Origin: a virus | IMG/VR virus record: IMGVR_UViG_3300045988_104111 | Location: 18,282 to 82,281 of that record | Strand: one strand, 5' to 3' | DNA length: 64,000 bases | Shown: positions 27,133 to 55,747 of the stretch, in pieces | Layout of the letters: each line of letters begins with the position of its first letter | How positions within the stretch are numbered: position 1 is the first letter of the stretch | Position numbers and translations under genes: made by a program | Notes under the pieces: model-generated | The model's input: only the letters and a program-made list of their open reading frames with translations | Told to the model about the DNA's origin: nothing | Databases searched by the model: none

Positions 27133-27161
27133 ATCATTCAGCTCCTTCATTTGATGGTTTA

Positions 27162-27667: not shown

Positions 27668-27943
27668 TTACTCATTGATTTCTGCCTTTAGTGTGCTTGT
27701 CGGCTTAAACGTCAGAGCATACTTGGCAGGAACTTCAATGGTTTCACCAGTTTGTGGATTACGAGCCGTTCTTGCATCACGCAGCTTAGTTGTGAACTTG
27801 CCAAAGCCATGAATCACTACATCTTCATGCTGGATTAGGCTATGTCTGATATAATCAATAAACGTATCTACGATCTCGGTTGTGTCCTTGACCGTATTCT
27901 CTGTGCTGTCTGCTACAAACTTGATTAGTTCCTTTTTTGTCAT
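27668..27943 (-). CDS. HU-family histone-like DNA-binding protein
   Basis: 91 aa. GFGKFTTKLRDARTARNPQTGETIEVPAKYALTFKP is the canonical HU/IHF arm. Confidence 0.85.
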   Translation of the reverse strand: MTKKELIKFVADSTENTVKDTTEIVDTFIDYIRHSLIQHEDVVIHGFGKFTTKLRDARTARNPQTGETIEVPAKYALTFKPTSTLKAEINE

Positions 27944-28445: not shown

Positions 28446-28540
28446 TGGTACTCCCGCTCCGACTCGAACGGAGATCGTGCAGCAATCTACTACCTTATGC
28501 CGGGTATAAACCGGTTGTCCTACCATTGAACGACGGGAGC
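28446..28540 (-). tRNA. tRNA with long variable arm, anticodon loop UUUAUAC (anticodon UAU by standard numbering), encoded CCA
   Basis: The minus strand GCUCCCG-UC-GUUC-AAUGGUA-GGAC-A-ACCGG-UUUAUAC-CCGGC-(25-nt variable region)-CUCCG-UUCGAGU-CGGAG-CGGGAGU-A-CCA folds as follows. Acceptor stem of 7 bp with G1-U72. U8 present. GG in the D loop. TPsiC-type loop UUCGA. Confidence 0.7.
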
Positions 28541-38712: not shown

Positions 38713-38741
38713 ATTATATCACATCAATTTGCATTTGTCAA
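38713..38741 (-). promoter_or_regulatory. Sigma70-type promoter (TTGACA-17-TATAAT, extended TG), proximal leftward promoter
   Basis: Minus strand reads cTTGACAaatgcaaattgatgTGaTATAAT. Confidence 0.7.
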
Positions 38742-38909: not shown

Positions 38910-38938
38910 TTGACAAATACTGTAATATATGATATAAT
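38910..38938 (+). promoter_or_regulatory. Sigma70-type promoter (TTGACA-17-TATAAT, extended TG), distal rightward promoter
   Basis: cTTGACAaatactgtaatataTGaTATAAT. Confidence 0.65.
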
Positions 38939-38957: not shown

Positions 38958-38986
38958 ATTATATCACATCAATCAATTTTTGTCAA
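38958..38986 (-). promoter_or_regulatory. Sigma70-type promoter (TTGACA-17-TATAAT, extended TG), distal leftward promoter
   Basis: Minus strand reads cTTGACAaaaattgattgatgTGaTATAAT. Faces the plus promoter at 38910-38938. Confidence 0.65.
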
Positions 38987-39001: not shown

Positions 39002-39030
39002 TTGACAAATAATCAATTATATGATATAAT
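39002..39030 (+). promoter_or_regulatory. Sigma70-type promoter (TTGACA-17-TATAAT, extended TG), proximal rightward promoter
   Basis: aTTGACAaataatcaattataTGaTATAAT, followed by AAGGAGG at 39044-39050. Confidence 0.7.
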
Positions 39031-39059: not shown

Positions 39060-39203
39060 TTGTGGAGCGAAATGAGCTATAACTGGTATATATCGGAAGA
39101 TACAGAACCAGAAGTATGGGATGATGAATATGAGCCAACTGAGCGTGATTGGGCGCTTTGGATATATGGTAGTTCAGAGAATGAATTAGAGGTGATTTAT
39201 TAA
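39060..39203 (+). CDS. 47-aa acidic Trp-rich peptide preceding the RNA polymerase gene
   Basis: TTG at 39060 lies 9 nt after AAGGAGG. Translation WSEMSYNWYISEDTEPEVWDDEYEPTERDWALWIYGSSENELEVIY. The stop directly abuts GTG 39204. Confidence 0.45.
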   Translation: MWSEMSYNWYISEDTEPEVWDDEYEPTERDWALWIYGSSENELEVIY

Positions 39204-41792
39204 GTGCCATTGACAGAGTTCTGTTATATACCTTCTGTGGCAACAGATGCTTTTTATACACTAAAGGAACAAGCAATACATAATCGGCTTGTCAGACTAT
39301 ACACTTTGAGAATGCGCGAAAAAGACGTTCAGAATCGAAAATGGCGTGTTTCATCAATCAACCGTGTTATCAAAAAGCATAAAGACGAGCTTGTAGCATT
39401 GCTAAAAAAATCGCTTGAAAGTAATATCACTCGAGAACTTAATCCAAATGCAGTAACAGATAAGACGATTATCAATCTGTTTTGCTCTGAGTTGACTCGT
39501 AGCCTTGGCATTAAGACGTTTGAGCGAAGTGACAAAATTATCATTGTCAATGTTTTCTTTTTCGAGGTATTAAATAGCATCATTCATAATGGTTTCAATT
39601 ACAATGGGGAACATTATATTTTCTATTCATGTGGTGCTGGCATGATACGCACAAAGCGATTCATGGCTGTTCGTGAAAAAGATTATTTAGCTGTTGAGCA
39701 AACTCTTATGTGCGGACTGACCATTGATTCAATCAATGCGCTGGGCGGCATGAATGAAAACAAGCTATTGAGTTATAAGAGTCTTATGGCGTCTGCGACC
39801 GACAGAATTGAGAACTTTGATATAGATCGCTGTATTGTAGTTGATGATTTTGAAATGCCGGTTATAGCTGAATCAGATTTTATTGATTATACAGATTACA
39901 GCATTACGCGAAAAACGTCTGAGACGATTATAGCTGAGACGGATGGTTGGGGTATGTGTTGCAAGTCCGGATTCAAGACGCAAATCATCCGAGCACCTTG
40001 GATAAAAGGATTGGTATCTTACTTTGATTTCAGGTCATGGCTTAAAGAATATTGTCCCGCTGACGATTGGACTGTAACCGATATATATGGTAAAGAATGG
40101 AATATTCTTGAGGACGATATTCAGTACATCCTAACGAAGTCAATGTTTAAGCTACACAAGTTCTATCCATCTTGGCTGTGTTACAAGGCTAATTTCAAGA
40201 GCTATGGCTGCTATTTTGGTTGTTGTAAAGTTGAGGAAGATTATATCCCAAAGGCAAGAATCAATTACCAGATGCTTCAATCTTTAAGTGATATGACAGA
40301 CAATGAGATTGAGCGGCTTATTGTCAAGACGGCAGATGAAATTGATAGCGTCGGACGAGATTATCAAACTACCATGAGGCTATTAGGCGCGACCGAATAT
40401 AATCAAACAAAATCAGCCATGCAAGAAGCGTTGACAATATACCCAGAATTATTCAAAGATGCGTATAACAGGGAGTTGCTGAAACAGACAAAGAAAAGTT
40501 TGGTAAAACAAGCAAGAGGCGGTAGATTGAGAATTAACGGCAAATACTTGTTTATATCTCCAGACCCAGTTGCATTTTGTGAGTGGTTATTTAAGGGTGA
40601 GCAATTCCCAACTGGTATACTTGAAAATGGAGAGGTTTACACCAACCAATTCAAAGACGGCGACGAGCTTGATTGTTTGAGAAGCCCACACTTGTATCAA
40701 GAACATGCAGTTAGAATTAACAAGCGAAATGAGCTGACTGATAAATGGCTTGGTGGAACAAAATGTGTGTATTTCAGTTGCCACGATATGATTAGTCGTA
40801 TATTGCAACAGGATTTTGATGGGGATATTTCCTTGGTTGTGAAGGATAGGACGTTGACAACTGTGGCAAAGCGCAACATGCAAGGAATTGTACCGTTATC
40901 GTATGACCTCAAAAAAGCACGTGGGGGCATTATTGATGCTGACAGATTGTATGAGGGTGTGAGTACAGCATATACAGGTGGTTCAATCGGGCCAATTAGT
41001 AACGCAATTAGTAAAGTAAAAAATGCTAATGGCGGTAAAATGACTGATGAGCAAATTAGAGTAATTGCTTGGCTCACAATGAAGAATAATCAAATTATTG
41101 ATTTTGCGAAAACGTTGTGGAAAAGTGAACCGCCAAAAGAAATAGCCGATATTATCAAAAAATACACAAAATCAAAACTACCTAATTTTTTCATTTACGC
41201 AAAAGACAAAGACCCAGATACACAAGTTGAGCCTCCCAACAATTCCACGATGAATCGCATCTCAGCTAAAATTCCTACGTCCCGAATCCGCTACAATAAC
41301 AAGATTGGGAAATTCGACTGGACGATGCTGATAAATAAGTCAGTCGATTATACCACTAGAGAAAATTCGCCAATCATCGAGAGGTATAATTGGTGGATAA
41401 GAAATCAACGTCGATTTGACTATGGTGATGACACGCATATCAATGAGAACGATTTATATAAATATCGCCGCATAGCACAAGATATAGTGGAATATAGCAA
41501 TGAACCACTAGATGTTGTTGTCAATAGTTTGGTTGCTTATTTATATACGGTCAAAAAATCAAGCAATAAGAAAATGCTATGGGCTTGTTTTGGTTGGACG
41601 ATTGTAGATAATTTGAGAATCAATACGGCGCAACTTAATCCAATCTGCCCCATTTGTGGTAAGCGGTTCAAGCCACGTGATGTATGCCAGCATTATTGTT
41701 CTGAAGAATGCTATAAGAAAGCAGATAATCAGCGGCGTATTGAATCGCGTGAAGCACCACCTGTCCGCACGGGGGATATGTTAAAACAATAG
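39204..41792 (+). CDS. YonO-like single-subunit two-barrel RNA polymerase
   Basis: 862 aa. LRSPHLYQEH, then about 40 residues, then QQDFDGDISLVV. This gives a DxDGD metal-binding loop preceded by R-x-P-x-L, as in beta-prime NADFDGD and SPbeta YonO. C-terminal CPICG...CQHYCSEEC zinc ribbon. An HU-like gene follows, as yonN follows yonO in SPbeta. Confidence 0.6.
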   Translation: MPLTEFCYIPSVATDAFYTLKEQAIHNRLVRLYTLRMREKDVQNRKWRVSSINRVIKKHKDELVALLKKSLESNITRELNPNAVTDKTIINLFCSELTRSLGIKTFERSDKIIIVNVFFFEVLNSIIHNGFNYNGEHYIFYSCGAGMIRTKRFMAVREKDYLAVEQTLMCGLTIDSINALGGMNENKLLSYKSLMASATDRIENFDIDRCIVVDDFEMPVIAESDFIDYTDYSITRKTSETIIAETDGWGMCCKSGFKTQIIRAPWIKGLVSYFDFRSWLKEYCPADDWTVTDIYGKEWNILEDDIQYILTKSMFKLHKFYPSWLCYKANFKSYGCYFGCCKVEEDYIPKARINYQMLQSLSDMTDNEIERLIVKTADEIDSVGRDYQTTMRLLGATEYNQTKSAMQEALTIYPELFKDAYNRELLKQTKKSLVKQARGGRLRINGKYLFISPDPVAFCEWLFKGEQFPTGILENGEVYTNQFKDGDELDCLRSPHLYQEHAVRINKRNELTDKWLGGTKCVYFSCHDMISRILQQDFDGDISLVVKDRTLTTVAKRNMQGIVPLSYDLKKARGGIIDADRLYEGVSTAYTGGSIGPISNAISKVKNANGGKMTDEQIRVIAWLTMKNNQIIDFAKTLWKSEPPKEIADIIKKYTKSKLPNFFIYAKDKDPDTQVEPPNNSTMNRISAKIPTSRIRYNNKIGKFDWTMLINKSVDYTTRENSPIIERYNWWIRNQRRFDYGDDTHINENDLYKYRRIAQDIVEYSNEPLDVVVNSLVAYLYTVKKSSNKKMLWACFGWTIVDNLRINTAQLNPICPICGKRFKPRDVCQHYCSEECYKKADNQRRIESREAPPVRTGDMLKQ

Positions 41793-41860
41793 GAAATATA
41801 TAGATAAAACGAACTCACCACAACATATTGTGGTAAACTAATAGGGGAAGGACGATATAA

Positions 41861-42280
41861 TTGCATAAAAATAAATATCCTCGGCTAGGTAAAGCCGATA
41901 TGAGCAAAGAGTTACGACGGCGTACAGGCGTTGATTCTAAAATTATTGAATTAGTATTAAGAAATTATCATGATATTATCCGCGAGACACTACAGCATGG
42001 CGTGGAGTATTCACTACCTGATATTGGTGTTATTACATTCCGCGACCATCCACCTAAACCAGCTGGAGAATATTGGAATGGATTCCAAAAGCGGCGTATG
42101 TACTATCCTGACAGAATGGGATATTATCGGTTAGAGTTCAAGGCTGAGAAGCATATGGCTAGTTATGTAAAAGCTGGCACATTGTATGGTAAAGGTCCAA
42201 CCAAAGAAGAATGGGACGCTTGGGTATTAGAGAATTATCCCGACAATCCTAAATTCATGAAGGAAGAAGAAGATGGCTGA
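41861..42280 (+). CDS. HU/IHF-fold DNA-binding protein (divergent)
   Basis: IIELVLRNYHDIIRETLQHGVEYSLPDIGVITFRDHPPKPAGEYWNGFQKRRMYYPDRMGYYRLEFKA follows the HU helix-helix-arm layout. Confidence 0.55.
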   Translation: MHKNKYPRLGKADMSKELRRRTGVDSKIIELVLRNYHDIIRETLQHGVEYSLPDIGVITFRDHPPKPAGEYWNGFQKRRMYYPDRMGYYRLEFKAEKHMASYVKAGTLYGKGPTKEEWDAWVLENYPDNPKFMKEEEDG

Positions 42281-42836
42281 ATATAACAAGCTGAATCAGG
42301 AATTTTATGCTTATGCGGCTAGTTTACTTGAATCCAAACCAGAGACAGTAAAAAAGTATTGGCAAGCATGTGTTGACACAATTGTGCATATATTGCATTT
42401 TGATGGTAGGTGTCAAATGCCGGGGGTTGGTACGTTTAGATTAAAGCAACATCCTGAACGCAGAGTAATGGCTAAGAATGAAGCTGGTGAACTTGTTGAG
42501 CAAATTAACCCAGCTTGGTTTAGTATAACCTATGACGCAAATGACGCATTTATAAACAATGTAAATGGTAAAGGTGTAACCAAATTATATCGTCAAAGGG
42601 TAAGAAATCGTAAGTTGACACCTAATGACTTAAAGTTAATTACCCAAGCAGAAGTAGAGCGAACAGCCCGAAAGACGCTTGAGCAAATGGCACAAGATCG
42701 TATGGAGCAAGCAAAGCAACAGAGCTACGATGATTTCATCAATGTAATCAATAAGAAAAAAGAAGAATACGAACGGAAAAAGAAGGAAAAGGAACAGAAA
42801 CTGAATGAATCTACAGAAGATACGACAAGCGACTGA
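42273..42836 (+). CDS. HU/IHF-fold DNA-binding protein (divergent) with Lys/Glu-rich tail
   Basis: VKKYWQACVDTIVHILHFDGRCQMPGVGTFRLKQHPERRVMAKNEAGELVEQINPAWFSITYDA. Confidence 0.5.
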   Translation: MAEYNKLNQEFYAYAASLLESKPETVKKYWQACVDTIVHILHFDGRCQMPGVGTFRLKQHPERRVMAKNEAGELVEQINPAWFSITYDANDAFINNVNGKGVTKLYRQRVRNRKLTPNDLKLITQAEVERTARKTLEQMAQDRMEQAKQQSYDDFINVINKKKEEYERKKKEKEQKLNESTEDTTSD

Positions 42837-43986
42837 GCTACTAGATAGCAAGTTAATTGACTTGCAAGAATGGACGGCGCGTTGTCTTGGTGAAGATTAT
42901 AGGGGCGTTTGGTCAGAGGAATATCTACGCAGATGTGCCGTATTTGTTCGCAATATGCTAAACGGCGCAGATGATTGTGAATCAGACGAAAAGGATGCCA
43001 ATATTCTATCACAGCTTAGAGAGGCTAAGATTGAGTTAGAAAAAGAACGCAAGAAATTACAGACAACTGGATTACAAATTCAAGAAAATTATAGGAATCT
43101 TGCCCGTAGTGAGTTAATGATTGAACAGATTGGAGACGCTATTCGTGGACTTGACCAAATAGTTATTAAACAATTTGAGCATACAAATCCTCAGCAAAGG
43201 ACAGCTCTGCTTGTTGTGGCAGACCAGCACTATGATTCCAATTTTAAGGTTGATGGATTGTGGGGAGAAACAGTAAATCTTTATAATAAAGACGTTTTTG
43301 CAAATCGTATGTGGAGTCTTTTGGCAAAAATGGATGCCGATAAATTTGATTATGATGTATTAAAGGTGGTATCATGTGGCGATGCACTTGAGGGACTTAT
43401 CAGAATGTCATCCTTGCAAAAACTACGCCAACCTGTTGTGAAATCTACGATTGAATTTGCGGAATTTATGAGTCAATGGCTTGTTGAAGCAAGCAATCGT
43501 TTGGGTATTCCTGTCGAATTCGCAATAGTTCCGGGAAATCATTCAACTCTCAGAATACTTACACAAAAGCCAGAGTTTCCAGAGGAGAACTTAGAATATA
43601 TCATTCATAAGTTTATCGAAATCAGGCTTGAAAATGAAGAAAATGTGACTGTTGAACCATATAACGACGTTTATTTTACAACTATCTATAATGAGAACAT
43701 GGTATTTACTCATGGAGAAAATAAAGACATATCTGATGTAATAAGGCATCTTGAAAATATGTATGATGTGACCATTGACAGATGTTATGCAGCACATTAT
43801 CATAGTAGTTCAACTAAAGATATTGGCGTTGGCAACGTTGGAGCCAAACAAATTATTCGTGTTCCTTCAATTTGTGGAACAGACCCATATGCTGTGAAAT
43901 GTTGTAAAAATAATCGTGCTGGTGCATATTTTGCTGTTTTTGATGAAGACGGCGAATGTTTTAATAAAATTTATTATTTGTCTTGA
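42805..43986 (+). CDS. Calcineurin-like metallophosphoesterase (SbcD/Mre11-like fold)
   Basis: Motifs VVADQHY, SCGDALEG, VPGNHS, FTHGEN, AAHYHS in the canonical order. Confidence 0.65.
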   Translation: MNLQKIRQATELLDSKLIDLQEWTARCLGEDYRGVWSEEYLRRCAVFVRNMLNGADDCESDEKDANILSQLREAKIELEKERKKLQTTGLQIQENYRNLARSELMIEQIGDAIRGLDQIVIKQFEHTNPQQRTALLVVADQHYDSNFKVDGLWGETVNLYNKDVFANRMWSLLAKMDADKFDYDVLKVVSCGDALEGLIRMSSLQKLRQPVVKSTIEFAEFMSQWLVEASNRLGIPVEFAIVPGNHSTLRILTQKPEFPEENLEYIIHKFIEIRLENEENVTVEPYNDVYFTTIYNENMVFTHGENKDISDVIRHLENMYDVTIDRCYAAHYHSSSTKDIGVGNVGAKQIIRVPSICGTDPYAVKCCKNNRAGAYFAVFDEDGECFNKIYYLS

Positions 43987-44011
43987 CATAAGTAAAGATA
44001 TATGGTATAAT
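43983..44011 (+). promoter_or_regulatory. Sigma70-type promoter (TTGACA-17-TATAAT, extended TG)
   Basis: cTTGACAtaagtaaagatataTGgTATAAT, overlapping the stop of the phosphoesterase gene. Confidence 0.7.
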
Positions 44012-44110
44012 ATAATAAAGCGGGACAGGGAGTAGCTACCTTGCCGAGTGCCCTTAACACTTGGCTAACCGCTTAAAATAAATAATCTTTAAGGGAGATT
44101 GATATTTGTT

Positions 44111-44896
44111 ATGGTAAGAAAATATACTTATGAAGCAATTTGTAAAATTTTTGAAGAAAAGGGATTTCTTGGCTGTCTAATAGATACAAAAGAAGATTTT
44201 GAAAGAAAAGGGAAAGAGCATAAAACAACACCATTATATACAAAGATGAGGTTTCATTGTAAATATTGTGGAAATGAATTTGAAAGAAGCTTAGCTTGTG
44301 TGAAAGTATGTGTGAGACCTTGGCTTTGTGGACCATGTTCTCAAAGTGAGGGTGCAGAAGATCAGAGAAAAGATTATGCAAAGTGTAAACAAGACATACA
44401 AGACAAGGGATTTACGCCTTTATTTAATCCAGAAGATATTCATACAGTACATCAAAAAGTTAAATGTATTGGTTCGTGTGGGCATGAAGTTATAACAAGT
44501 GTTCGTGCGTTTTTAAGAGCTAAGACATCTTTATGCGCTGAATGTGCGTCTCAAATACATTGTGGTGAGAATAATTATAATTGGAAGGGCGGTTATGAAA
44601 ATGAAAAGATACGATTTAGAAAAACATATGAATTTAAGTCATTTGTAAGAGCTGTTCTAAAAAGAGATAATTATACTTGTCAGTGTTGTAATAGAAATTC
44701 CAAGAAAACCAAATTGGTAGTGCATCATAAGGATGGATATAATTGGTGTGTCGAAAAACGAACGGATGCAGATAATGGCGTTGTATTGTGCGAAGACTGT
44801 CATAAATTGTTCCACAACATTTATGGAGCAGGAAAGAACACTAAGGAACAATATGATGAATTTATAAAGACACACTATGGCTTAATATGGGAATAA
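44111..44896 (+). CDS. HNH endonuclease (free-standing, zinc-finger rich)
   Basis: VVHHKDGYNW...NGVVLCEDCHKLFH. Several CxxC pairs. The start is ATG 44111 or TTG 44099. Confidence 0.75.
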   Translation: MVRKYTYEAICKIFEEKGFLGCLIDTKEDFERKGKEHKTTPLYTKMRFHCKYCGNEFERSLACVKVCVRPWLCGPCSQSEGAEDQRKDYAKCKQDIQDKGFTPLFNPEDIHTVHQKVKCIGSCGHEVITSVRAFLRAKTSLCAECASQIHCGENNYNWKGGYENEKIRFRKTYEFKSFVRAVLKRDNYTCQCCNRNSKKTKLVVHHKDGYNWCVEKRTDADNGVVLCEDCHKLFHNIYGAGKNTKEQYDEFIKTHYGLIWE

Positions 44897-45227
44897 TTGT
44901 GCGCATTGCTCATGTTGTTTGAAGATGGGCAAAAGACATGGACTAAGAAATATGTTTTGAATTAAATCTATCCTTGCAATAGCAAGTTTAGAAATATCCG
45001 AAAGGAGGTCACTATTCTCTTGAATTATCCACTGGTTTATCCGAAGCATAATTAAAGAAAGGATGGTGGTCAGAGCCAATCGGCTCATATCTACAATAAG
45101 CCCAACTCAATGGGGACTGTTGTTTAACTGAATATTGAACCTTGACAAATACGAAGCAACTGAGAGCAATCTTGGTTGCTTTGTCATATTGATAGGAAAA
45201 TAAACGGAAATTGAAAGGAATGAGAAT

Positions 45228-46052
45228 ATGTTTTGCCCATATTGTGGCAAGGAAAAGCAAGATAGCCAATTCTATAAAAGCCCAATCAAAACGGGCGAAT
45301 ATATTAAACCATGTAAATCATGTGTGACTGAGCTATATAAGCAAGCTCTTGAAATTACTAAAGACCAAGGCGCGGCACTATGGTCAACTTGTATGCAGAC
45401 GGGTATCCCTCTGCGCCGGGCTGAATATACTGCTTGTCTTGATACACTAGAAAAGGCGGCTAAGGGCAAAAAGCCTAGTTTGTTTATGTTGTATCACACA
45501 TATTTATCAACATCGCCTGATAAGCTAACGGGCGTATGGGATAGCGATATGGAGTTGTCTAATTTCAAGGATTTGGGCGATGTTGCTAAGGGTGAAACTG
45601 ATGAGGTGGCGCTTAAAGCGAGATGGCGCAAACAATGGGGCGGCGACTATGAGGATGAAGATTGTCAGTGGCTAGATGATATGTTTGATAGCTATACGGC
45701 AGATATATTTGAAATGGACACCGCTATGGAAATGCGTTATCGTGACTTGTGTAAATTAGAGCTTGAGCAGTATAAAAATGGTGTTAATAAGGACACACAG
45801 TCACAGATTAAAACGCTTATGTCATTACTTAAACTTGATGATTTTAAGAGCAATCAGAAGTCGGATGCTGAACGGGCGTTTGAGAAGCGTATAGCTTGGG
45901 TGGAATATACCAAGCCGTCTGAATGTGAAGATTTAACAAGATTCGTAGATATGGTTGGATATGAAAAGGACAAGGGCGAAAAGATGCGTAGTTTGCGCAA
46001 TGCTGTTGCTGGCACTAGAGATTACCCAGCAATCCCGAAGGAGGAAGCATAA
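45228..46052 (+). CDS. Putative terminase small subunit
   Basis: The call rests on position immediately upstream of, and overlapping, the large terminase. N-terminal zinc ribbon CPYCG...CKSC. Confidence 0.4.
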   Translation: MFCPYCGKEKQDSQFYKSPIKTGEYIKPCKSCVTELYKQALEITKDQGAALWSTCMQTGIPLRRAEYTACLDTLEKAAKGKKPSLFMLYHTYLSTSPDKLTGVWDSDMELSNFKDLGDVAKGETDEVALKARWRKQWGGDYEDEDCQWLDDMFDSYTADIFEMDTAMEMRYRDLCKLELEQYKNGVNKDTQSQIKTLMSLLKLDDFKSNQKSDAERAFEKRIAWVEYTKPSECEDLTRFVDMVGYEKDKGEKMRSLRNAVAGTRDYPAIPKEEA

Positions 46053-47896
46053 TGCGTTCTAGGATGGGCGGTCTTAGAGAATCATTTAAGGCTGATAAAC
46101 TTCGAGCTGTATCTGGCATATCCAAAAAAATAGATAGCGATTTAGAAAACAACATCATAGAGTGGACAACTCTGTTTAGACGGAATTGGGACATATTTGC
46201 TGAATTTTATCTAGGGATTCCATTAAAACCATATCAACGCCAAGCATTGCATGAAATTGGTGTGTCAGATGTGTATTTTTGGAGAGCAGGGCGTGGTGGT
46301 GCAAAATCGTTTATTACAATGCTTGCGGCGGTCTGTAAATTACTATTGTATCCAAACTGTCAGATAATTATTACATCCTCTACGGTTGACCAAGCCAATA
46401 AAATGGTCAAAGAGAAGTTAGAGAAAGAATTGATAAAAAAGTTATCTAAACTACTTTTGCTTTATTACGAAAAAGACTGGATAAAGATAACAAAGCCGAA
46501 TGATGGATATTATGTAGAATGTACGCTTAATAATTCATCCATCACCGTTCTTGCACCAGTTGAATCCGCGAGAGGTTCACGCTCCAACTTTACCATTTAC
46601 GACGAAGTTGCTATTATGAAGAAAACGGCAATAGACCAAATTTTTGATGGCATGCTGTTTCCTAGGCAACCCAATTATTTAAGCAATCCTGCATATTCTG
46701 GGAATAAGAGATGGATAGAAGAATCTAAGAGTATATATCTAACATCGTCTAAGTTTAAGTTCCAGTGGTGGTATAGATTGTGGTGTGACTGTGTAACAGG
46801 ATATTATGTTGATAAGCGTACTAGATATGGTATATTTGCAACAGACTTCTTTGATAATATAGAAAATGGCTTAAAAACATGGGGCGATTATCGTAGAGCT
46901 AAAAGACAGAACGACGATATATCATTTAGGACAGAATATCTAAACGAAGCCGTAGGTGAATCCGAAGATTCTTTCTTTAGCCTTGAATCGTTCAAAGAGA
47001 ATCAGGTTATTACAGATGCGTTTTGTCCACCAAAGCCAATGGATTTATTGGTGTCTAGTGAATCAGATGAGGACGAAAAGAAAGAGGATGAAGTACGTCT
47101 CATCGTGTCTGACTTTGCATGGACAACAACTGGTAAGAAAGCAAATGAATCAGATAATAGTATTGCTATATGTATTAGGGCTAAATGGAAAAAAGACCAT
47201 TTTGATAAATATGTAGAATATATTGAATTGCTACCAACAGCAGATGACGCGGATGGTTGTGCTGATAGGTTAAAAGAATTGTTTTGGTTGTACAAGGCAG
47301 ACTATCTAGTGCCCGATGCGAGATCAGGCGGTGAAGCGGTCATGATAGCCTTATCTAAACCGTATACTAATGAACGCTATTCGGCGTTCATCAATAATCA
47401 TGGCTTGACTATGGCTGATAAAAAGGAATATCATGTGGCTCGACCTGATAAGCTAGATTACTATAGAGCCAATGCAGTAGATCCAAATGCTTATCCTTGT
47501 ATTATACCTATTGTTGGTAGTGAAACACTCAACACGTCTTATTGGAAAGCAACTAAAATGTCACTTGAGAATAATCGTATAAAATTCTTGATAGGGATGA
47601 GCGATAAGCAAGATGCTATTGTTGAAACTGGCGAATATTACAAATACACCGGCGAACAGACAGCAGATATACTTGCACCTCATGGCAATACTGATTTACT
47701 CATATCGGAAGCCGTTAATTTAACTACTATATTCAAAGGTGAAAACATCAAACTAGAGGCACCAAGAACGGGGCATCGTGACCGTATTGTTACATTGGCT
47801 ATGGGTATTCTAATATGTGATTATATAGAAAATGAATGGAATAGACAGAGTCATGTTGAAGAATATGACTTAGATGATGTGCAATTAGTTTGGTGA
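46052..47896 (+). CDS. Terminase large subunit
   Basis: YQRQAL...WRAGRGGAKSF (Walker A) and FTIYDEVA (Walker B). 614 aa. Confidence 0.75.
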   Translation: MRSRMGGLRESFKADKLRAVSGISKKIDSDLENNIIEWTTLFRRNWDIFAEFYLGIPLKPYQRQALHEIGVSDVYFWRAGRGGAKSFITMLAAVCKLLLYPNCQIIITSSTVDQANKMVKEKLEKELIKKLSKLLLLYYEKDWIKITKPNDGYYVECTLNNSSITVLAPVESARGSRSNFTIYDEVAIMKKTAIDQIFDGMLFPRQPNYLSNPAYSGNKRWIEESKSIYLTSSKFKFQWWYRLWCDCVTGYYVDKRTRYGIFATDFFDNIENGLKTWGDYRRAKRQNDDISFRTEYLNEAVGESEDSFFSLESFKENQVITDAFCPPKPMDLLVSSESDEDEKKEDEVRLIVSDFAWTTTGKKANESDNSIAICIRAKWKKDHFDKYVEYIELLPTADDADGCADRLKELFWLYKADYLVPDARSGGEAVMIALSKPYTNERYSAFINNHGLTMADKKEYHVARPDKLDYYRANAVDPNAYPCIIPIVGSETLNTSYWKATKMSLENNRIKFLIGMSDKQDAIVETGEYYKYTGEQTADILAPHGNTDLLISEAVNLTTIFKGENIKLEAPRTGHRDRIVTLAMGILICDYIENEWNRQSHVEEYDLDDVQLVW

Positions 47897-48046
47897 TATG
47901 ACTTGCCTATGAAGCGGTTGCTATGTTGGTGTGTTACCGTGGAGGTGCTATTAGGGTTGCGTGGTCTCCAAGTTCCAACTTAGGCTTAATCAAAACTATA
48001 AAATAAAAACACTCAAAAATACAAAACAAAGAAAGGAGGGCGAAAT

Positions 48047-49627
48047 TTGGCAGAACCGTTAGTAACATTTGAACAGGCTCAAGCCGTAACAGAATTTGCA
48101 CAAGCATTATATGCTTATGACCAGTTTGGCTTCTGGTCGCCAATGCTAAGCAATCAGCTATTGCAGAGTTTGAACAACAATCCAGAAACACCCAGTTCTG
48201 ATAAAATTCGCAAGGCGCTTGCTGAATACAAAGAAAATTCAGAGCAAATTCAGGGCTATATGGAATATATGAAATTCTGGGATATGATATTTGCCAGAAC
48301 TCTACAAGCATATTGCAATGCTCTATCATTTGATCTACAGCCTGTTTGTATCAATGCTTTTACTCAGAGTGATTATGAATCAAGCGCATACCAAGAGGAT
48401 AAGCGGCGCGTATATGATTTCTTAAACAAATTTGACTATAAGGCTGAATTTAGTAAAGTTGTGGCGCAAATTGTGACGCACGAAACATATTTTACTTGGT
48501 TCAGAAAGACGAAATGGGGCAATAAAGGAATGAAATTCGCCCTACAGATTTTGCCACAAGATAGATGTTTGCTTACCGGATATTGGGAAAAAGGCATGTT
48601 GTTTGATTTTGACATGAGCTATTTCCTGCAAGCTGGTGTAGACATCAATGGATTTGACCCAGCATTTAAGAAATATTATCAGCGTGTATTTGGCTCTGAG
48701 GAAGAAGCATTTAAAAATTATCGCCCTACAAACCCACTAAATAGACGAAATGGCGCATATGCTATGTGGACGCAAACATCTCCTAGTGATGGGGCATGGG
48801 CGTTTAAGTGGAATCCTAGTACATTTAACAATACGCCATTTTTAGCCCCGTTCCTAAAGAACGCCATTGCCAATGATGATATTGCTCAGTTACAATATAA
48901 TAAGGACATTGCGTCGGCATATGCTATTCTAGCTGGTGAAATTCGTCTATTTGATACGGCTAAATCTGGTACCAAGGCGAACCAATTTGCTATCGATCCA
49001 AAGACGTTAGGCGGATTTATGCAAAAGGCAAAGGCTGGACTTGGTTCGTTGTCTAAGTTGGCAGCTATGCCGCTTGAAAATATTAAGTTCTACCAATTTG
49101 AGGACAAGAATACAGATATGTATTCAACACAGTTGGCTACATCTGCTGGTGTTGGGTCTGGTGTGAGCCGTGTCATTTATAGCTCAGACAAACAATCTAA
49201 CGCGGAGATTGAGGCTGGGCTTAATGATATGTATCAGACTATGAAGCCGCTATATCCACAATTTAGTAATTTCCTAGAATTTTATGTCAATCAGTTAACA
49301 AAGAAATACAAGTGGAAGTTTATCTTTGATGGGTCTAATTATCCATTTGAGCGTGAGGCTCGATTTGATAAGGTGAAGAAAATGGCCGATTCTGGCATTG
49401 TTTTACCTATGCAAACATGGGCGTCTGTATCTGGATATCAACCGCAATTATTTGAAGCAATGATGGCTGAGAGCAAATATACGGGTTGGATTGATAAATA
49501 TACACAGTTGTTAAAGAACACAAATACAACTAAGGGCGGTTCAGATAATGAAGGTGGCAGACCCAGACAGGATGAAACAACACTCACAGATTCAGGAGAG
49601 GCAAGCCGAGAAACATTAGAGGAATGA
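48047..49627 (+). CDS. Putative portal protein
   Basis: 526 aa, directly after the terminase. TTG start follows AAAGGAGGG. Called on position and size. Confidence 0.55.
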   Translation: MAEPLVTFEQAQAVTEFAQALYAYDQFGFWSPMLSNQLLQSLNNNPETPSSDKIRKALAEYKENSEQIQGYMEYMKFWDMIFARTLQAYCNALSFDLQPVCINAFTQSDYESSAYQEDKRRVYDFLNKFDYKAEFSKVVAQIVTHETYFTWFRKTKWGNKGMKFALQILPQDRCLLTGYWEKGMLFDFDMSYFLQAGVDINGFDPAFKKYYQRVFGSEEEAFKNYRPTNPLNRRNGAYAMWTQTSPSDGAWAFKWNPSTFNNTPFLAPFLKNAIANDDIAQLQYNKDIASAYAILAGEIRLFDTAKSGTKANQFAIDPKTLGGFMQKAKAGLGSLSKLAAMPLENIKFYQFEDKNTDMYSTQLATSAGVGSGVSRVIYSSDKQSNAEIEAGLNDMYQTMKPLYPQFSNFLEFYVNQLTKKYKWKFIFDGSNYPFEREARFDKVKKMADSGIVLPMQTWASVSGYQPQLFEAMMAESKYTGWIDKYTQLLKNTNTTKGGSDNEGGRPRQDETTLTDSGEASRETLEE

Positions 49628-49631
49628 TATT

Positions 49632-50144
49632 ATGATGTTATCAGAAAGAACAAGTGAAGCCCTAGACATTCTAGTTGGGCAGTATTTTTCTTTGAACCGC
49701 ACGTTTGATAGGTGTGTGTCGTGGATGGAAGTAAAATTTGCTATGCCTAATGCCGCAAATATTATTCATCATAAATTAGCGCATCTCTGGCCGCTTATGG
49801 CTGATACTGTAAGCGATTTTAAACATCAATGGAACATTACCACATATTATCCTGAGACGCGTGGTGATAAGCGCGAATATGACAATCTTCAGCAAATGAT
49901 GGATACTATGCTTAGAGAAACATTAGATGTTTATGATGTTATCAAGCAAACGTATTATATTGCCAAAGAGGAAAAAGATTTCAACGCTAATGCTATGCTA
50001 CAAGAGCTTATGCAGGACATGAATAAGGTTGTGGCGCAAATTATAGTGCTAGATGACAAAGCCAAACAAATGCCAACAGAATATGACGAATATGACCGTC
50101 ATATTGATAGTTGGGGAATTGTTGGTTTGGAGGATTATCAATGA
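49632..50144 (+). CDS. Hypothetical helical protein
   Basis: ORF track. Confidence 0.5.
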   Translation: MMLSERTSEALDILVGQYFSLNRTFDRCVSWMEVKFAMPNAANIIHHKLAHLWPLMADTVSDFKHQWNITTYYPETRGDKREYDNLQQMMDTMLRETLDVYDVIKQTYYIAKEEKDFNANAMLQELMQDMNKVVAQIIVLDDKAKQMPTEYDEYDRHIDSWGIVGLEDYQ

Positions 50145-50320
50145 TTATTCTTGGAATTCCAAAGAACCCAGAAGATTATTTTATTGCTGATGATGCGCTT
50201 GCCTGGGAATTAGACCAAGCTGGATTCTCAGCTAAATATTTAGATGAGGATGCTTATTATTATAAAAAGAATAAAAAACTATTAAAATGGCTAGATAGTC
50301 ACAACATAGAAGGATGGTGA
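50141..50320 (+). CDS. Small hypothetical protein
   Basis: ATG at 50141 forms an ATGA overlap with the upstream stop. Confidence 0.45.
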   Translation: MIILGIPKNPEDYFIADDALAWELDQAGFSAKYLDEDAYYYKKNKKLLKWLDSHNIEGW

Positions 50321-50327
50321 GCAAAAA

Positions 50328-50546
50328 ATGAAGAATAGAGATTGGAAAACATGGCTAAAGGCCGCATTGGTTAGAGCAGTCAAAACAATGTGTCAGTCTG
50401 CACTAGCTTTAATTCCGGCAGCAATTACGATTGTTGACGTTGATTGGATTACTGTTGCTGGCACATCTGCGCTTGCTGGTGTTGTCAGCTTAATTACATC
50501 TGTTGCGGGATTGCCAGAGGTGGATGAAAATGCAAATCTTAACTAA
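50328..50546 (+). CDS. Holin
   Basis: 72 aa with two hydrophobic segments (SALALIPAAITIV; VAGTSALAGVVSLITSVAG). Overlaps the amidase start. Confidence 0.65.
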   Translation: MKNRDWKTWLKAALVRAVKTMCQSALALIPAAITIVDVDWITVAGTSALAGVVSLITSVAGLPEVDENANLN

Positions 50547-51333
50547 ATATATTACACATAATCCTTTTTTTAATGATGGTAGATGGATTACCGGAAATGA
50601 ATTTAAAGGATTCTTTCTTCACTCTGTAGGGTGTGCTCAACCAAATCCATTGGTTTTTATTAGACAGTGGGACAATGCTAATTATGGCCGTGCGGGGATC
50701 AACGGATTCATTGGAGCTGATGCGGTTTATTTAACGGCCCCATGTTTGGAGACACCGGGCCGGGTCAAGCGTATGCCCCACGCGGGGAAGCCTGCTGGGA
50801 ACAATGGGTATATCGGTTTTGAGATGTGCGAACCGGCACAGATTCATTATACGGTCGGCGCAAGCTTTATCGTGCGGGACCATGCTGCGGCCCAGGCGTA
50901 TTGCCGCAAGACGTACCAGAACGCTGTGCAGCTCTTTGCACGGCTGTGTAGTTTCCACGGGAAAAACCCGCTGCAGGATGGCGTGATTCTGAGCCATAAT
51001 GAAGGTGGAAAACGTGGTATTGCCAGTGGTCACGTCGACCCGGAGCACCTCTGGCGCGGGCTAAGCCTGCCGTATACCATGGAAGGATTCCGTCGAGATG
51101 TAGCAAATGCAATGAAACCAAAGGAGGAAATTGACATGACGAAAGCAGAAGTGGTTGCGCTGATTGATGCACGTATCCAGGCGGCGCTGGAGGGCAAGGG
51201 AACCGAGGCAAGCGCCTGGGCAAAAGATGAGTTTGCCCAAGCTGTCGCGGCTGGCATCACTGATGGTACCCGTCCTGGCGGGTATGCAAAGCGTGAAGAA
51301 GTTGCCGCTATGGTACTAAGAGGGAAAAAGTAA
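50530..51333 (+). CDS. N-acetylmuramoyl-L-alanine amidase (endolysin) with C-terminal SLH-like wall-binding repeat
   Basis: FFLHSVGC, HAGKPAGNNGYIGFEMCEP and SGHVDPEHLW fit amidase_2/PGRP-type zinc sites. The C-terminus is SAWAKDEFAQAVAAGITDGTRPGGYAKREEVAAMVLR. Start is ATG 50524 or 50530. Confidence 0.65.
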   Translation: MQILTKYITHNPFFNDGRWITGNEFKGFFLHSVGCAQPNPLVFIRQWDNANYGRAGINGFIGADAVYLTAPCLETPGRVKRMPHAGKPAGNNGYIGFEMCEPAQIHYTVGASFIVRDHAAAQAYCRKTYQNAVQLFARLCSFHGKNPLQDGVILSHNEGGKRGIASGHVDPEHLWRGLSLPYTMEGFRRDVANAMKPKEEIDMTKAEVVALIDARIQAALEGKGTEASAWAKDEFAQAVAAGITDGTRPGGYAKREEVAAMVLRGKK

Positions 51334-51373
51334 TCTTTCTTGTAAAAAATTTTATAAGAAAGGAGGAAGATGA

Positions 51374-52879
51374 TTGCAGAAAGATGTAAAATTTCAGCTT
51401 GAAGATGCTGTTGAATATCCTGAATGGTGTGATAATTACCCAGAGTATAAATTTACTGTGTTTAAGTGCTGCTTTCTAAGCACTAAGCCAAATGCGCACA
51501 ATTTAGATATTGGCGATGATGTATTGCGGCGTGACGCTCAATCTATTCTTGGCAATATGCTTGTGGCGAAAATTCAGAATGGGGATGCAACTACGCACCT
51601 ACCGTCAGAGATTCAGTATGGTTATTTTCCGCGAGAACAAGAAATTGAGTTTGTTGAGGAAGATGGAGTTACTAAGGCATACGCATATGCGGTTGTTAGC
51701 AAGCATTATAGTAAGGAATTAAACAATATCTTTGAGTTTGATAATCTTCGCAATAGCTCTGTCGAAATGACGGTAACAACGGATAAAGATGAGGATGAGG
51801 GCAAAGTTGTGGCACTAGACATTTTCGGCTTAACTGTGCTTGGAAAAGCTATTAACGGCAGCTGTCCTGATGCAGATATCAAGATGGTGCGATTCTCTAC
51901 TGAGGATGCGGATGCTTATTTTGCTAAGTCTGATTCTTTATCTAATCTAAAGCAATTTGTCGAAGAAAGGAAACAATCAATGGCTGAAAAGAAAACGTAT
52001 AAGATTGACAAGTCCAAAGAAGCCATGTCTACGGCTGATTGGGGCGATTATGATAAGGCGGCTATGAGAGATAAAATCATGGGTGCTAAGAATCGTGATA
52101 CACTTGTCAAATCTGTATATCTACTTGTAGAAGATGGTTGGAAAGATGCGCCATCTGAACATCTAAAATATCCTGTCATGGAACTTGATGGTGATAAATT
52201 TGTGTATAACCGAAATGCTCTGAGTTCGGCACTAGCATATGCAAAGCAGAACGATGAGACTGAGGTTGTAAATAAAATTAAGGCTATCTATAAAAAGTTA
52301 GACCTTGATGACGATTCTGAAAGAAAGGAGGAGGCTAAAATGGAAGAAACTAAAGAACTAGCCGCTACTGAGGTCGAGGCTGAATCCGCTCTTGAGGAAA
52401 AGAAAGAAGAAATGGCTGAACCAGAGATTGAGGTTAAGGCTGAGGAACCAAATTGTGACGAATGCGATGACCATGATGATGACGATGATGGGCATGAGGA
52501 AGAAATGTCCGCTGAGGACATGAAAGCTCGTATTGCGCAACTTGAAAAAGATATTGAAGATAGAGACAATATCATCATGGGTCAAAATTCTGAGCTTGAG
52601 ACGCTACGTCAGTTTAAGAAAGATGTAGAGGACAAGGAAAAGGCTATTTCTGTTGAGGCTATTATGGCTGAATGCAAGGAGTATATGTCTGACGATTGTT
52701 ATAAGCAGATGCGCGAAGAAGGCATGGCTTGTGAATTTGCGGCTGTTGATGCTTGGGCAAATAAGGTCAAGGCATATTGCTTCTCTGCTGTAAAGAAAAC
52801 CCCAAAGAAAGAAAAATCTGATGTATTTACTTTCGCTGCTCCTGTTGAAAAGAAGGAGCATAAAGGTCTATGGGACTAA
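51374..52879 (+). CDS. Putative scaffolding (or protease-scaffold) protein
   Basis: The C-terminal half is extremely acidic and coiled-coil (EEAKMEETKELAATEVEAESALEEKKEEMAEPE...DDHDDDDDGHEEE). Lies upstream of the capsid gene. Confidence 0.45.
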   Translation: MQKDVKFQLEDAVEYPEWCDNYPEYKFTVFKCCFLSTKPNAHNLDIGDDVLRRDAQSILGNMLVAKIQNGDATTHLPSEIQYGYFPREQEIEFVEEDGVTKAYAYAVVSKHYSKELNNIFEFDNLRNSSVEMTVTTDKDEDEGKVVALDIFGLTVLGKAINGSCPDADIKMVRFSTEDADAYFAKSDSLSNLKQFVEERKQSMAEKKTYKIDKSKEAMSTADWGDYDKAAMRDKIMGAKNRDTLVKSVYLLVEDGWKDAPSEHLKYPVMELDGDKFVYNRNALSSALAYAKQNDETEVVNKIKAIYKKLDLDDDSERKEEAKMEETKELAATEVEAESALEEKKEEMAEPEIEVKAEEPNCDECDDHDDDDDGHEEEMSAEDMKARIAQLEKDIEDRDNIIMGQNSELETLRQFKKDVEDKEKAISVEAIMAECKEYMSDDCYKQMREEGMACEFAAVDAWANKVKAYCFSAVKKTPKKEKSDVFTFAAPVEKKEHKGLWD

Positions 52880-52912
52880 AACTAAAATTGATTAAAAGGA
52901 GATAATTATATT

Positions 52913-53443
52913 ATGGCTAATACTCACTCTTTTGTTATCCGCACTCTTGACGATTGGCAGAATGATGCCATCAACTGTGCTGGTATTTGTAAGAATAATG
53001 ACCTAGACAATGGTCAGTTTGTTACTCGTGGCGATCTTGGTCTAAAGACTGACGGTGGCTATGAATTTACTTGCGCACTACCTACTGATAATGCAACTGA
53101 TCTATGGCTCGTCGAAAAGCCAGCTGTTGGTACTACTGTTGAGCAGCAGGAAATGAGCGACCCCCGTTATTTCTATAACCCCAAGGGCAGTGCATTCTCC
53201 ATTAAGGGTCTAACTGCTGGTCGCACTTTCCTTGAAGTTCCTGCTTCTGCATTTGCTACCGGTAAAGACCCCAAGACTGTTGCTGGTGCTACTGTTGTTT
53301 CTGTTGATACCAATGGACGTCTAGTTGCCGAAGTCGGTTCTAATCCTGCTTCTGGTACTTATTTTACCATCGAAGCTGAGCATACCGTTGATATTGGTAT
53401 CGAAGCTGTTCCTACTTGGATTCTCAAGTGCGCCCGCAACTAA
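52913..53443 (+). CDS. Hypothetical head-module protein
   Basis: ORF track. Strong SAAAGGAG-type SD. Confidence 0.5.
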   Translation: MANTHSFVIRTLDDWQNDAINCAGICKNNDLDNGQFVTRGDLGLKTDGGYEFTCALPTDNATDLWLVEKPAVGTTVEQQEMSDPRYFYNPKGSAFSIKGLTAGRTFLEVPASAFATGKDPKTVAGATVVSVDTNGRLVAEVGSNPASGTYFTIEAEHTVDIGIEAVPTWILKCARN

Positions 53444-53478
53444 TTAAATTTAATAAATAAGCAAAGGAGATATATATT

Positions 53479-54570
53479 ATGAATCTAAGCAAAGAAATTG
53501 TTGCTTTCTCCAATGGCAACACTAAGTTCTATGAGCAGTTCATGGACTATCATTTCCATAAGTCTGAGGCTGAACAGGGACGTAAGCTAGGTGCTTATGA
53601 TGTTACCAAGCCTCTTGCTGAAAAGCATGATGTTGTCAATGCTGCGTATTTTGCAGAGGTTGAGCGTCTTTCCAACTGCACTCGTAATGCTGAGAATGCT
53701 GATGCGTGGGCAGCTAATCCTATGGTTCGATGGGCAAATTTCGCAGTCATCAACGCCCTAGTCAATGCAGTTCTTCCTGCATACGTTACCGAATCCCTTG
53801 CTCCATTCGTTGATTTCCGTATGGCTGGCATTGGCGATATTGTTAAGGTCAAGGTTATGCCTCGTACCCTTTACACCGTCTCTGCTGGTGGCACTGGTGA
53901 ACGTACAACTTTCCGTCAGAAGAAGTATGCTGGCGATGTTGTCATTTCCATGCAGGAGCGCATTATCACCACTTACGTTGATATGTATCGCGTAATGGCT
54001 GGTAAGGAAGATATTGCTGATTTCGTCCGTGCTATCGTTCTTTCCATTGAGATTGATATGCAGAAGATGGCCGTTGCCGCTCTTAATGCTGGTCTAGCTG
54101 GCGCTTCCTATCCTTCTCAGTTCCTAGAGAATGCCGCATTTGATGCTAAGAAGCTTATTGCTCTAGCACAGCGCGTTCAGGCTTACAACAATGGTATTAA
54201 GCCAATTATCATGGGTACTGCTTCTGCTCTAGCTAACGTTCTACCTGATAGCACTATGGGCTATCGTGGCAACTATGATGCTAATGGCGGCTCTGTCCAT
54301 GTTCTCCGTGACTTCTATGGCTTTGCCCTCTATGAGCTACCCCAGATGCCTACTGGCTCTAACTACGGTCTAGCTCTTGATGACAATAAGCTATATGTTG
54401 TTTCTCCTGTTGGCTCTAAGCTAGTTGTTGGTGCTATGTCCACCACCCTAACCAACAGCAATCAGTTCTATGAGAATGCTGACCTCACCTCTAATTTTAC
54501 AATGCGCAAGAACTACGGATTCGAGTTCGTCGGTGCATCCTTCGCTGGACTATACACCATCACTGAGTAA
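53479..54570 (+). CDS. Putative major capsid protein
   Basis: 363 aa. Strong SD (AAAGGAGatatatatt). Followed by a strong terminator. Codon usage is visibly biased compared with neighbouring genes. Confidence 0.55.
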   Translation: MNLSKEIVAFSNGNTKFYEQFMDYHFHKSEAEQGRKLGAYDVTKPLAEKHDVVNAAYFAEVERLSNCTRNAENADAWAANPMVRWANFAVINALVNAVLPAYVTESLAPFVDFRMAGIGDIVKVKVMPRTLYTVSAGGTGERTTFRQKKYAGDVVISMQERIITTYVDMYRVMAGKEDIADFVRAIVLSIEIDMQKMAVAALNAGLAGASYPSQFLENAAFDAKKLIALAQRVQAYNNGIKPIIMGTASALANVLPDSTMGYRGNYDANGGSVHVLRDFYGFALYELPQMPTGSNYGLALDDNKLYVVSPVGSKLVVGAMSTTLTNSNQFYENADLTSNFTMRKNYGFEFVGASFAGLYTITE

Positions 54571-54579
54571 TAATTATCT

Positions 54580-54610
54580 GAGAGGGGCTATTAACCCCTC
54601 TCTATTTATA
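54580..54610 (+). terminator. Rho-independent terminator after the capsid gene
   Basis: GAGAGGGGctattaaCCCCTCTC followed by TATTTAT. Confidence 0.65.
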
Positions 54611-54638
54611 ACGGAAATAAGAAAGGAAAATAAAAGGA

Positions 54639-55286
54639 ATGGCAAATACTAAATCCACTACAGCCACCAAGACAACAAAGTCGATTGAAACGCCTGTTGT
54701 TGATAAGGAAAAGGAACAGCTAAAGGCGCAGCTTGCAGAACAGCAGAAGCGCATGGAAGAAATGATGGCGCAGATGCAGGTGCTTATGCAGGCACAGTCT
54801 CAGGTTAAAACAGAAGCGGCATCTGTTGAAGATAAGTCTAAGGCGCTTAGAAATATTAAGTTCATCAATATGTGTCCGGGCAACATCAATCTGCGTGGTA
54901 CTCGTATGCACAGAATTGAAGGACAGTATAAGTATAAGATGATTCCAGAATCTGAGGCGTTTTCTGTTGTAAATAATATGCCTGAAACCGTATCTAGCGG
55001 CATGGTGTATATTGACGACCCAGAATTCGTTCATAAGTGCGACCTAGACGAAATTTATCGTCATATTCTTAGCGCGACAAAGCTCAAGGAGCTATTAAAG
55101 CAGAATGCGGTCGATATTTGTGAGGTATATAAGGGCGCAACAGACCAACAGAAGCAAATCATTGTTGATACTATTTCTAATATGGTGCTTGATGGACTAC
55201 CAGTTGACGCGAACGTGCTTGTTAAGATTGGTGAACTTAGTGGTAAAAATCTAATTGATATTGAACCCCTTGATGACAAGGAGTGA
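54639..55286 (+). CDS. Hypothetical protein
   Basis: ORF track. Confidence 0.55.
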   Translation: MANTKSTTATKTTKSIETPVVDKEKEQLKAQLAEQQKRMEEMMAQMQVLMQAQSQVKTEAASVEDKSKALRNIKFINMCPGNINLRGTRMHRIEGQYKYKMIPESEAFSVVNNMPETVSSGMVYIDDPEFVHKCDLDEIYRHILSATKLKELLKQNAVDICEVYKGATDQQKQIIVDTISNMVLDGLPVDANVLVKIGELSGKNLIDIEPLDDKE

Positions 55287-55292
55287 TAAATT

Positions 55293-55733: not shown

Positions 55734-55747
55734 AGAGGGGTGGATAT

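Follow-up and report, generated by a model that had tools for sequence, protein, structure and literature searches.

The window analysed here, 64,000 nucleotides (nt) of the uncultured virus record IMGVR_UViG_3300045988_104111 (record positions 18,282–82,281), carries a rightward operon built around an 862-residue protein of the YonO family, the single-chain RNA polymerases known from phage SPbeta. The coding strand and the GC skew switch at about 38.7–39 kb of the window. Replication genes that point leftward (DNA polymerase, primase, DnaB-like helicase, RecJ and an integrase) occupy the left side of this switch, and terminase, portal, lysin and structural genes its right side. The operon, with the landmarks of its polymerase gene, is laid out as follows (all on the + strand).

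39060–39203: pep47, a small acidic protein of 47 residues, TTG start
39204–41792: YonO-type polymerase of 862 residues, GTG start
40677–40826: catalytic region of the polymerase, with LRSPHL at 40677–40694 (residues 492–497) and the predicted Mg-binding loop DFDGD at 40812–40826 (residues 537–541)
41646–41711: four-cysteine motif CPIC-x13-C-x3-C, a putative zinc ribbon (Cys 815/818/832/836)
41861–42280: HU1, 139 residues
42273–42836: HU2, 187 residues
42805–43986: YonJ-like exonuclease of 393 residues (phrog_284, E value 3e-33), the last gene of the operon

The polymerase and its operon

YonO has been characterised experimentally as a single-chain DNA-dependent RNA polymerase for the late genes of SPbeta (Forrest et al. 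2017, PMC5467207). The 862-residue protein is homologous to it over its full length, with 39.6% identity to SPBc2 yonO in tblastn (96% coverage, E value 6e-167), and its best match in the phage collection is a protein of Clostridium phage D-1873 (40.7% identity, 99% coverage, tblastn). The match to phrog_8308 (E value 1e-224) covers practically the full profile, with residues 7–842 aligned on profile positions 6–845 of 847; no Pfam family was assigned. Its membership of the YonO family, proposed by an earlier sequence-only reading of this DNA and now carried by homology and profile matches, is therefore firm at the level of sequence.

We aligned 12 YonO homologues at 33–74% identity, SPbeta YonO among them. 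LRSPxLxxE (residues 492–500) and D537-x-D539-G-D541 are invariant in all 12, so that both parts of the two-barrel signature which had been read from the letters, LRSPHL and DFDGD, are conserved family features. The same is true of TDGxG (247–250), RxPxxKG (263–269) and S313/K316, which may belong to a second, beta-like barrel with conserved basic residues. The aspartates of DFDGD align with DNDGD of SPbeta YonO, the residues that were changed to Asn in the inactive mutant; this aspartate triad is essential in YonO (PMC5467207). By its homology to YonO the protein is a single-chain two-barrel DNA-dependent RNA polymerase, in which D537, D539 and D541 are predicted to bind the catalytic Mg2+.

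The C-terminal zinc ribbon suggested earlier likewise holds as a sequence motif, consisting of two CxxC-type knuckles about 13 residues apart, with Cys 815, 818, 832 and 836 invariant in all 12 homologues, SPbeta included. Profile matches in the PDB fall solely on zinc-ribbon proteins (Rpb12, RpoP, eL43 and TiaS) and cover the Cys motif; they are weak (E values 0.18–1). Sequence and profile searches of the PDB with the 862-residue protein returned no YonO-like chain and no significant match to beta, beta' or an RNA-dependent RNA polymerase, and residues 469–605 gave a weak match to a PHROG annotated as RNA-dependent RNA polymerase.

A perfect AAGGAGGTG lies 8 nt 5' of the pep47 TTG, a strong Shine-Dalgarno sequence, and the polymerase GTG follows directly on the pep47 TAA, with a ribosome site of its own (GAGGTG). 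The HU2 gene overlaps HU1 by 8 nt. The exonuclease gene, whose product is 29% identical to SPbeta yonJ (tblastn), overlaps HU2 by 32 nt; the operon therefore comprises five genes and not four, so that the earlier four-gene operon was right in the placement of its four open reading frames and wrong in where it ended. These overlaps and adjacencies point to coupled translation. The 68-nt spacer 3' of the polymerase gene holds a hairpin at 41816–41834 (+) that lacks a T-run and is therefore no typical terminator.

YonO relatives are common. At least 547 YonO-related stretches were found in IMG/VR, and we surveyed the neighbours of the best 78 loci, of which 73 had enough downstream DNA; a close clade comprises 20 loci. 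The window polymerase adds a new member to a family already known and is no new kind of enzyme; the uncultured phages that carry it form a widespread clade.

In some relatives (loci are given by their survey numbers, beginning with L), the polymerase gene is interrupted by an insert of about 1 kb, always at the same site (L010, at 10271–11280, L014, L015 and L019). The site lies right after an invariant NNQ(I/V)ID, that is, after residue 633 of the window YonO. The insert carries a 225-residue open reading frame with an I-HmuI-like NUMOD domain, and an intron that encodes a homing endonuclease is therefore the probable identity; no group I intron was called in these inserts by Rfam. A mosaic YonO allele in L012 has its recombination breakpoint at the same place, and yonO is split in some SPbeta-like phages as well.

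Conserved companions of the polymerase

At 56 of the 73 loci, YonO is followed within about 2 kb by an HU-like gene. The pair found in the window, HU1 with HU2, occurs in lineages at 48–98% YonO identity; two tandem, more canonical HU genes follow YonO in L113 and L115, and most lineages at 41–45% YonO identity have a single canonical HU. SPbeta (where the HU-like yonN adjoins yonO, as the sequence-only reading had stated), D-1873 and one prophage show the same neighbourhood, as does the L022/L027 group through a jackhmmer link. All three small companions, pep47, HU1 and HU2, are kept in 20/20 close loci and persist in lineages down to about 48–54% YonO identity. This persistent adjacency is the main argument, drawn from gene order, that the HU-fold proteins may work with YonO, and the conserved linkage makes pep47, HU1 and HU2 good candidates for YonO helper factors.

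The two HU-fold assignments rest on different evidence. HU1 scores 24.2 bits against PF00216 (cut-off 22.4), aligned to profile positions 3–59 of 90, and its homologues carry precomputed PF00216 annotations. Its AlphaFold model is poor, with a predicted local distance difference test score (pLDDT) of 53, but shows the HU topology, H-H-E-E-E-E-E-H; in Foldseek the top PDB matches of this model are all HU/IHF, at E values of 1.4e-3 or worse and template modelling (TM) scores of about 0.5. The HU1 arm is about 8 residues longer than usual, aromatic and basic, and too divergent for confident alignment at the proline-tip position. An acidic C-terminal tail follows, which is kept in diverged orthologues.

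HU2 consists of an N-terminal HU-fold domain and a charged helical tail of about 90 residues. The window copy stays under the PF00216 cut-off with 17.6 bits; orthologues, which align over almost the full profile, reach 23.0 bits in L009 (profile positions 5–85 of 90), 22.1 in L014 and 20.8 in L020. Its model is well defined (pLDDT 86–90 over residues 10–90), and the 50 best PDB matches in Foldseek are all HU/IHF (E values from 9e-6, TM scores 0.6–0.7 on the target). The two divergent HU-fold proteins of the sequence-only reading are thus borne out, HU1 by its profile score and HU2 by its model and the profile matches of its orthologues. Direct similarity between the two is not significant (BLAST E value 0.14; hhalign probability 8%), and a common origin is supported indirectly by the HU fold that both appear to have and by the two tandem canonical-like HU genes found at this place in L113 and L115. 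Orthologues of HU2 in L014 (10831–11697) and L020 (13058–13834) carry an extra C-terminal NUMOD1 DNA-binding module. A third HU gene, which brings the HU-fold proteins of this phage to three, is located in the early arm:

27668–27943, − strand: canonical HU of 91 residues (PF00216, 105.4 bits, full length)

The product of pep47, a Trp- and acid-rich open reading frame already singled out from the letters, contains 14 Asp or Glu, one Lys or Arg and five Trp, with an isoelectric point of 4.05. It is present in 20/20 close-clade loci, including diverged forms that keep the core W-x-EMSY..Y...EPEVWD..EP..W.WI. Variable sites are distributed 8/7/16 over the three codon positions, an enrichment at the third. 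On this pattern of conservation pep47, earlier designated a leader peptide, is a genuine gene that behaves as one for a small protein and not as a regulatory leader: what is conserved is the amino-acid sequence, with the third-position bias and the core retained in diverged loci. The family is narrow, with 10 clusters among 1.84 billion representative proteins; pep47 has no Pfam or PHROG match, and its profile found nothing in the PDB at E values up to 10.

In every close locus but three, the pep47 stop codon either adjoins the start of YonO or overlaps it, and a local profile places pep47 directly 5' of YonO in lineages down to about 51–54% YonO identity. The three exceptions (L003, L006 and L007) have a 794-nt insertion between pep47 and the polymerase gene, at 9207–10000. 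This arrangement argues for translational coupling of pep47 to the polymerase gene. We considered whether read-through of its stop codon might make pep47 an N-terminal part of YonO, and rejected the idea: the two genes share a frame in some relatives and overlap out of frame in others, and this variable relation speaks for coupling and not for read-through.

Promoters and a conserved block before the packaging genes

The promoters around the operon, and the features between it and the packaging genes, are the following.

38713–38741 and 38958–38986, − strand: perfect leftward promoters that match the rightward pair
38910–38938 and 39002–39030, + strand: tandem perfect sigma-A promoters (TTGACA-17-TATAAT, with TG extension), predicted to drive the operon
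43983–44011, + strand: perfect sigma-A promoter that overlaps the exonuclease stop, before the HNH gene
44099–44896, + strand: HNH endonuclease gene, a variable cassette together with the promoter at 43983–44011
44994–45227, + strand: conserved structured non-coding block of about 230 nt, directly 5' of the first packaging gene
45228–46052, + strand: YonG-like protein of 274 residues (p274), the first packaging gene, which opens the late block
46052–47896, + strand: terminase large subunit, with portal, lysin and other structural genes 3' of it

The window contains 13 perfect (12/12) TTGACA-17-TATAAT sites, and 18 sites of at least 11/12, compared with 3.4 expected in shuffles. Of the perfect sites, ten point into the leftward early genes; two others lie before the operon and one before the HNH gene. 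The rightward pair is kept upstream of YonO in most relatives. On the + strand from 44012 to 62061 there is no site of at least 11/12, and close relatives have no strong site in the 6–7.5 kb after the start of their first packaging gene. This asymmetry is real and far beyond chance. Near-consensus promoters at the early genes, as first noticed by eye, are therefore amply present; the accompanying view that no sigma promoter precedes the late block stands, as regards strong sites, for 44012–62061 (+), but the perfect site at 43983 lies 1.2 kb upstream of the late genes. From these promoter statistics, and by analogy with SPbeta, we infer that the host sigma-A polymerase would serve the early genes and YonO the late ones.

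A perfect sigma-A promoter at the 3' end of the exonuclease gene is present in 10/19 relatives and missing in 8/19, and differing small cassettes follow. The gap between the exonuclease gene and the conserved block is a hot spot for such cassettes, with the HNH gene in the window, where all related loci lack it, and small open reading frames or drum RNA in L003–L021.

The block itself has a sharp 5' edge at ATATCCGAAAGGAGGTCACT, common to 17 loci that bear no relation to one another upstream of it, and occurs once in the window. Two hairpins, at 45073–45086 and 45151–45184, show compensatory changes, G-U pairs included; the minimum free energy of the block has a z-score of −3.5, and 0/200 shuffles fold as well. 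An Rfam search of 43800–45300 at E values up to 1 returned nothing, and the window has no copy of TCATTTATGARGGT, a motif that is repeated in SPbeta. Position, sharp boundary and structure make the block the best candidate for a YonO late promoter, a late-operon leader, or both.

We also examined CTCATGTACCATGnGTACAAGGAG, a sharply bounded hairpin motif of about 27 nt common to SPbeta and eight relatives of the window. As an essential late promoter here it was rejected, being absent from the window and from several close relatives. It is found in L001 (SPbeta, 10264–10286), L003 and L004 (15069–15090), L005 (14887–14908), L008 (5608–5629), L011 (6963–6984), L012 (15046–15067) and L018 (13456–13477), with further sites in L043–L078. 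In SPbeta it lies 3' of the mapped YonO start and within the non-coding stretch; in relatives of the window it occupies the gap between the exonuclease and packaging genes and precedes drum-like RNA. An exact scan found it in 36 IMG/VR contigs with unrelated flanks, and in 4 of the 36 it belongs to a tRNA array, 31–42 nt 5' of a tRNA gene with the same orientation. The motif resembles a promoter or a processing signal that serves genes for non-coding RNA in phages.

The DNA just 3' of YonO modules is a gathering place of structured non-coding RNAs. In L034 the module is followed by a tRNA and a full ROOL RNA (315 bits), at 14785–15452; in SPbeta (L001) there are a DUF3800-VIII RNA and, below threshold, a skipping-rope match, at 9027–9136 and 10381–10446; and in D-1873 (L002) there is a drum RNA at 12656–12763.

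Elsewhere in the window, a tyrosine integrase gene (26293–27174, − strand) suggests a temperate lifestyle, and a lone tRNA-Ile gene with anticodon TAT (28446–28540, − strand) is unusually long at 95 nt. Among sequenced phages there is no close DNA relative, and a search of 185,579 species genomes, one genome per species, found no close prophage, the best YonO identity there being 41%.

A proposed late transcription switch and its relation to known systems

The joint explanation that fits these data best, and one that we hold with good though not complete confidence, is that the operon forms the transcription-switch module of an uncultured phage of about 90 kb with SPbeta-like organisation, late transcription by YonO included. 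In such a scheme, the host sigma-A RNA polymerase would transcribe the five-gene operon from the tandem promoters at 38910 and 39002. YonO would then transcribe the rightward packaging, structural and lysis genes as a late unit, as suggested by the analogy with SPbeta and by 18 kb free of strong sigma-A promoters, starting most plausibly within the conserved block at 44994–45227. HU1 and HU2, whose genes overlap and always occur together, would probably form a dimer of the HU/IHF type, which readies the template for YonO by bending it or in some other way. The pep47 protein would be made in step with YonO through termination-reinitiation coupling, and its most likely role would be that of a small polymerase partner or, alternatively, of a protein that inhibits some host protein when the switch occurs. 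A narrower version makes pep47 and an HU1/HU2 heterodimer dedicated initiation factors of YonO, with the HU pair bending or opening a promoter in the block and pep47 binding the polymerase; we regard this version as unlikely.

Several observations speak against parts of this reading. The two-barrel fold of the 862-residue protein is carried over from published analyses of YonO, and comparison of the block (44990–45230) with the SPbeta region that contains the mapped YonO start gave chance-level matches only. At the arm tip, where DNA-kinking HU/IHF proteins typically have a proline (R-N-P-x-T-G), the window HU2 has none and reads KNEAG; its L009 and L020 orthologues have xPxG. The canonical HU elsewhere in the phage means that its HU-fold proteins could serve general DNA functions. 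There is no detectable HU-like gene downstream of YonO at 17 of the 73 loci. In addition, pep47 is 94–96% identical in phages whose YonO is just 58–67% identical, a constancy beside a diverged polymerase that is unlike tight co-evolution, and in L012-type phages pep47, HU1 and HU2 are 83–96% identical to those of the window, against 40–60% identity over residues 1–650 of YonO. The HU-less loci and this mosaic history are the main grounds for caution. Finally, the promoter at 43983 points the same way as the late block and no terminator is predicted between them, and read-through into the block, from there or from the operon promoters, could in principle occur.

The alternative that survives best accepts the polymerase as a YonO homologue and denies it cofactors: HU1 and HU2 would be general nucleoid, replication, recombination or packaging proteins, made together with the neighbouring exonuclease, and pep47 an inhibitor directed at the host, for example at its RNA polymerase or at a defence protein. 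Small acidic phage proteins such as T7 Gp2 and Ocr do inhibit host targets, and the strong acidity of pep47 (isoelectric point as above) would suit that role. HU-like genes are common in phages generally, and the canonical HU of this phage, the HU-less YonO loci and the near-constancy of pep47, HU1 and HU2 beside YonO alleles at 58–67% identity all agree with it. Set against these points are the order of YonO followed by HU, which persists in lineages at 41–45% YonO identity, the abutting or overlapping pep47 and YonO genes in all but the insert-bearing loci, and the lack of resemblance between pep47 and any PDB chain or PHROG family, which leaves no link to a known inhibitor. The published work can be taken both ways: SPbeta YonO elongates in vitro without any added factor, but its authors left open a need for extra factors in promoter recognition (PMC5467207). 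We see this alternative as possible, at rather less than even chances.

A second alternative concerns the block, which might be a packaging site of the terminase (pac or cos), or an operator that controls translation of the first packaging gene, instead of a YonO promoter or leader. Directly 3' of it come a gene that is putatively like that of a small terminase and the gene of the large terminase subunit, and conserved structured DNA or RNA adjoining terminase genes is common in phages. In SPbeta-like phages, however, the genome opening (pac) point is located between yonR and yonP, upstream of yonO and away from the terminase genes, which makes a pac role for the block less likely; the compensatory changes in its two hairpins, with their G-U pairs, fit an RNA element. 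This alternative seems to us improbable.

Least likely of all is that the late block is transcribed mainly by host read-through from 43983 or the operon promoters, leaving YonO a narrower task such as non-coding RNAs or a subset of genes: the 12/12 site at 43983–44011 has no predicted intrinsic terminator before 45228, 10/19 relatives have a promoter at the same position, and both SPbeta and relatives have many genes for non-coding RNA between YonO and the late genes, but the 8/19 relatives without a strong promoter in this gap keep both the late genes and the conserved block, the HNH cassette is an insertion unique to the window, and 37 SPbeta late genes are silent without YonO (PMC5467207).

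A YonO-driven late switch stays our preferred reading. Among single-chain relatives of the multisubunit RNA polymerases of cells, YonO alone has been characterised, and if dedicated initiation factors did exist here, they would answer how it finds its promoter, the question left open for SPbeta. The clade offers testable candidates in an acidic protein coupled to YonO throughout, a derived pair of HU-fold proteins and a sharply bounded block as the expected site of the late promoter. With their help, promoter-specific transcription by a minimal two-barrel polymerase could be reconstituted sooner.

An R-S/N-P motif followed by the Mg-binding loop DxDGD, as in the window protein, is likewise found in the beta/beta' core of multisubunit RNA polymerase and in eukaryotic-type RNA-dependent RNA polymerases such as QDE-1, a relationship taken from published analyses of YonO (PMC5467207); unlike the multisubunit enzymes, the window polymerase is one chain of 100 kDa. 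HU1 and HU2 appear to share the fold and the N-terminal helical dimerisation region of the HU/IHF family, to which SPbeta YonN and the phage-encoded TF1 of SPO1 belong, and their overlapping genes recall the IHF alpha/beta pair. In D-1873, the polymerase (CLG_B2308) is annotated as a hypothetical protein, a single canonical HU gene (hup) lies 275 nt downstream of it, and the open reading frame upstream encodes an unrelated basic protein of 119 residues.

The closest parallel is SPbeta, where the order is yonR (leftward), yonP (64 residues), yonO, yonN (HU), a 1.7-kb non-coding stretch, yonK, yonJ, yonG and yonF (terminase). The order in the window matches it, with pep47, YonO, HU1, HU2, the YonJ-like exonuclease, HNH, the YonG-like gene and terminase, and divergent consensus promoters lie upstream in both. 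An annotated stem-loop just 3' of yonO may be compared with the hairpin at 41816–41834. The differences are equally clear. SPbeta has one canonical yonN, and the window has two derived HU-fold genes instead; pep47 has no obvious similarity to YonP when the two are compared by inspection, without alignment, and is coupled directly to the polymerase start, unlike the small SPbeta gene. The 1.7-kb stretch that holds the mapped YonO start in SPbeta is absent from the window, where the exonuclease gene is instead fused into the polymerase operon.

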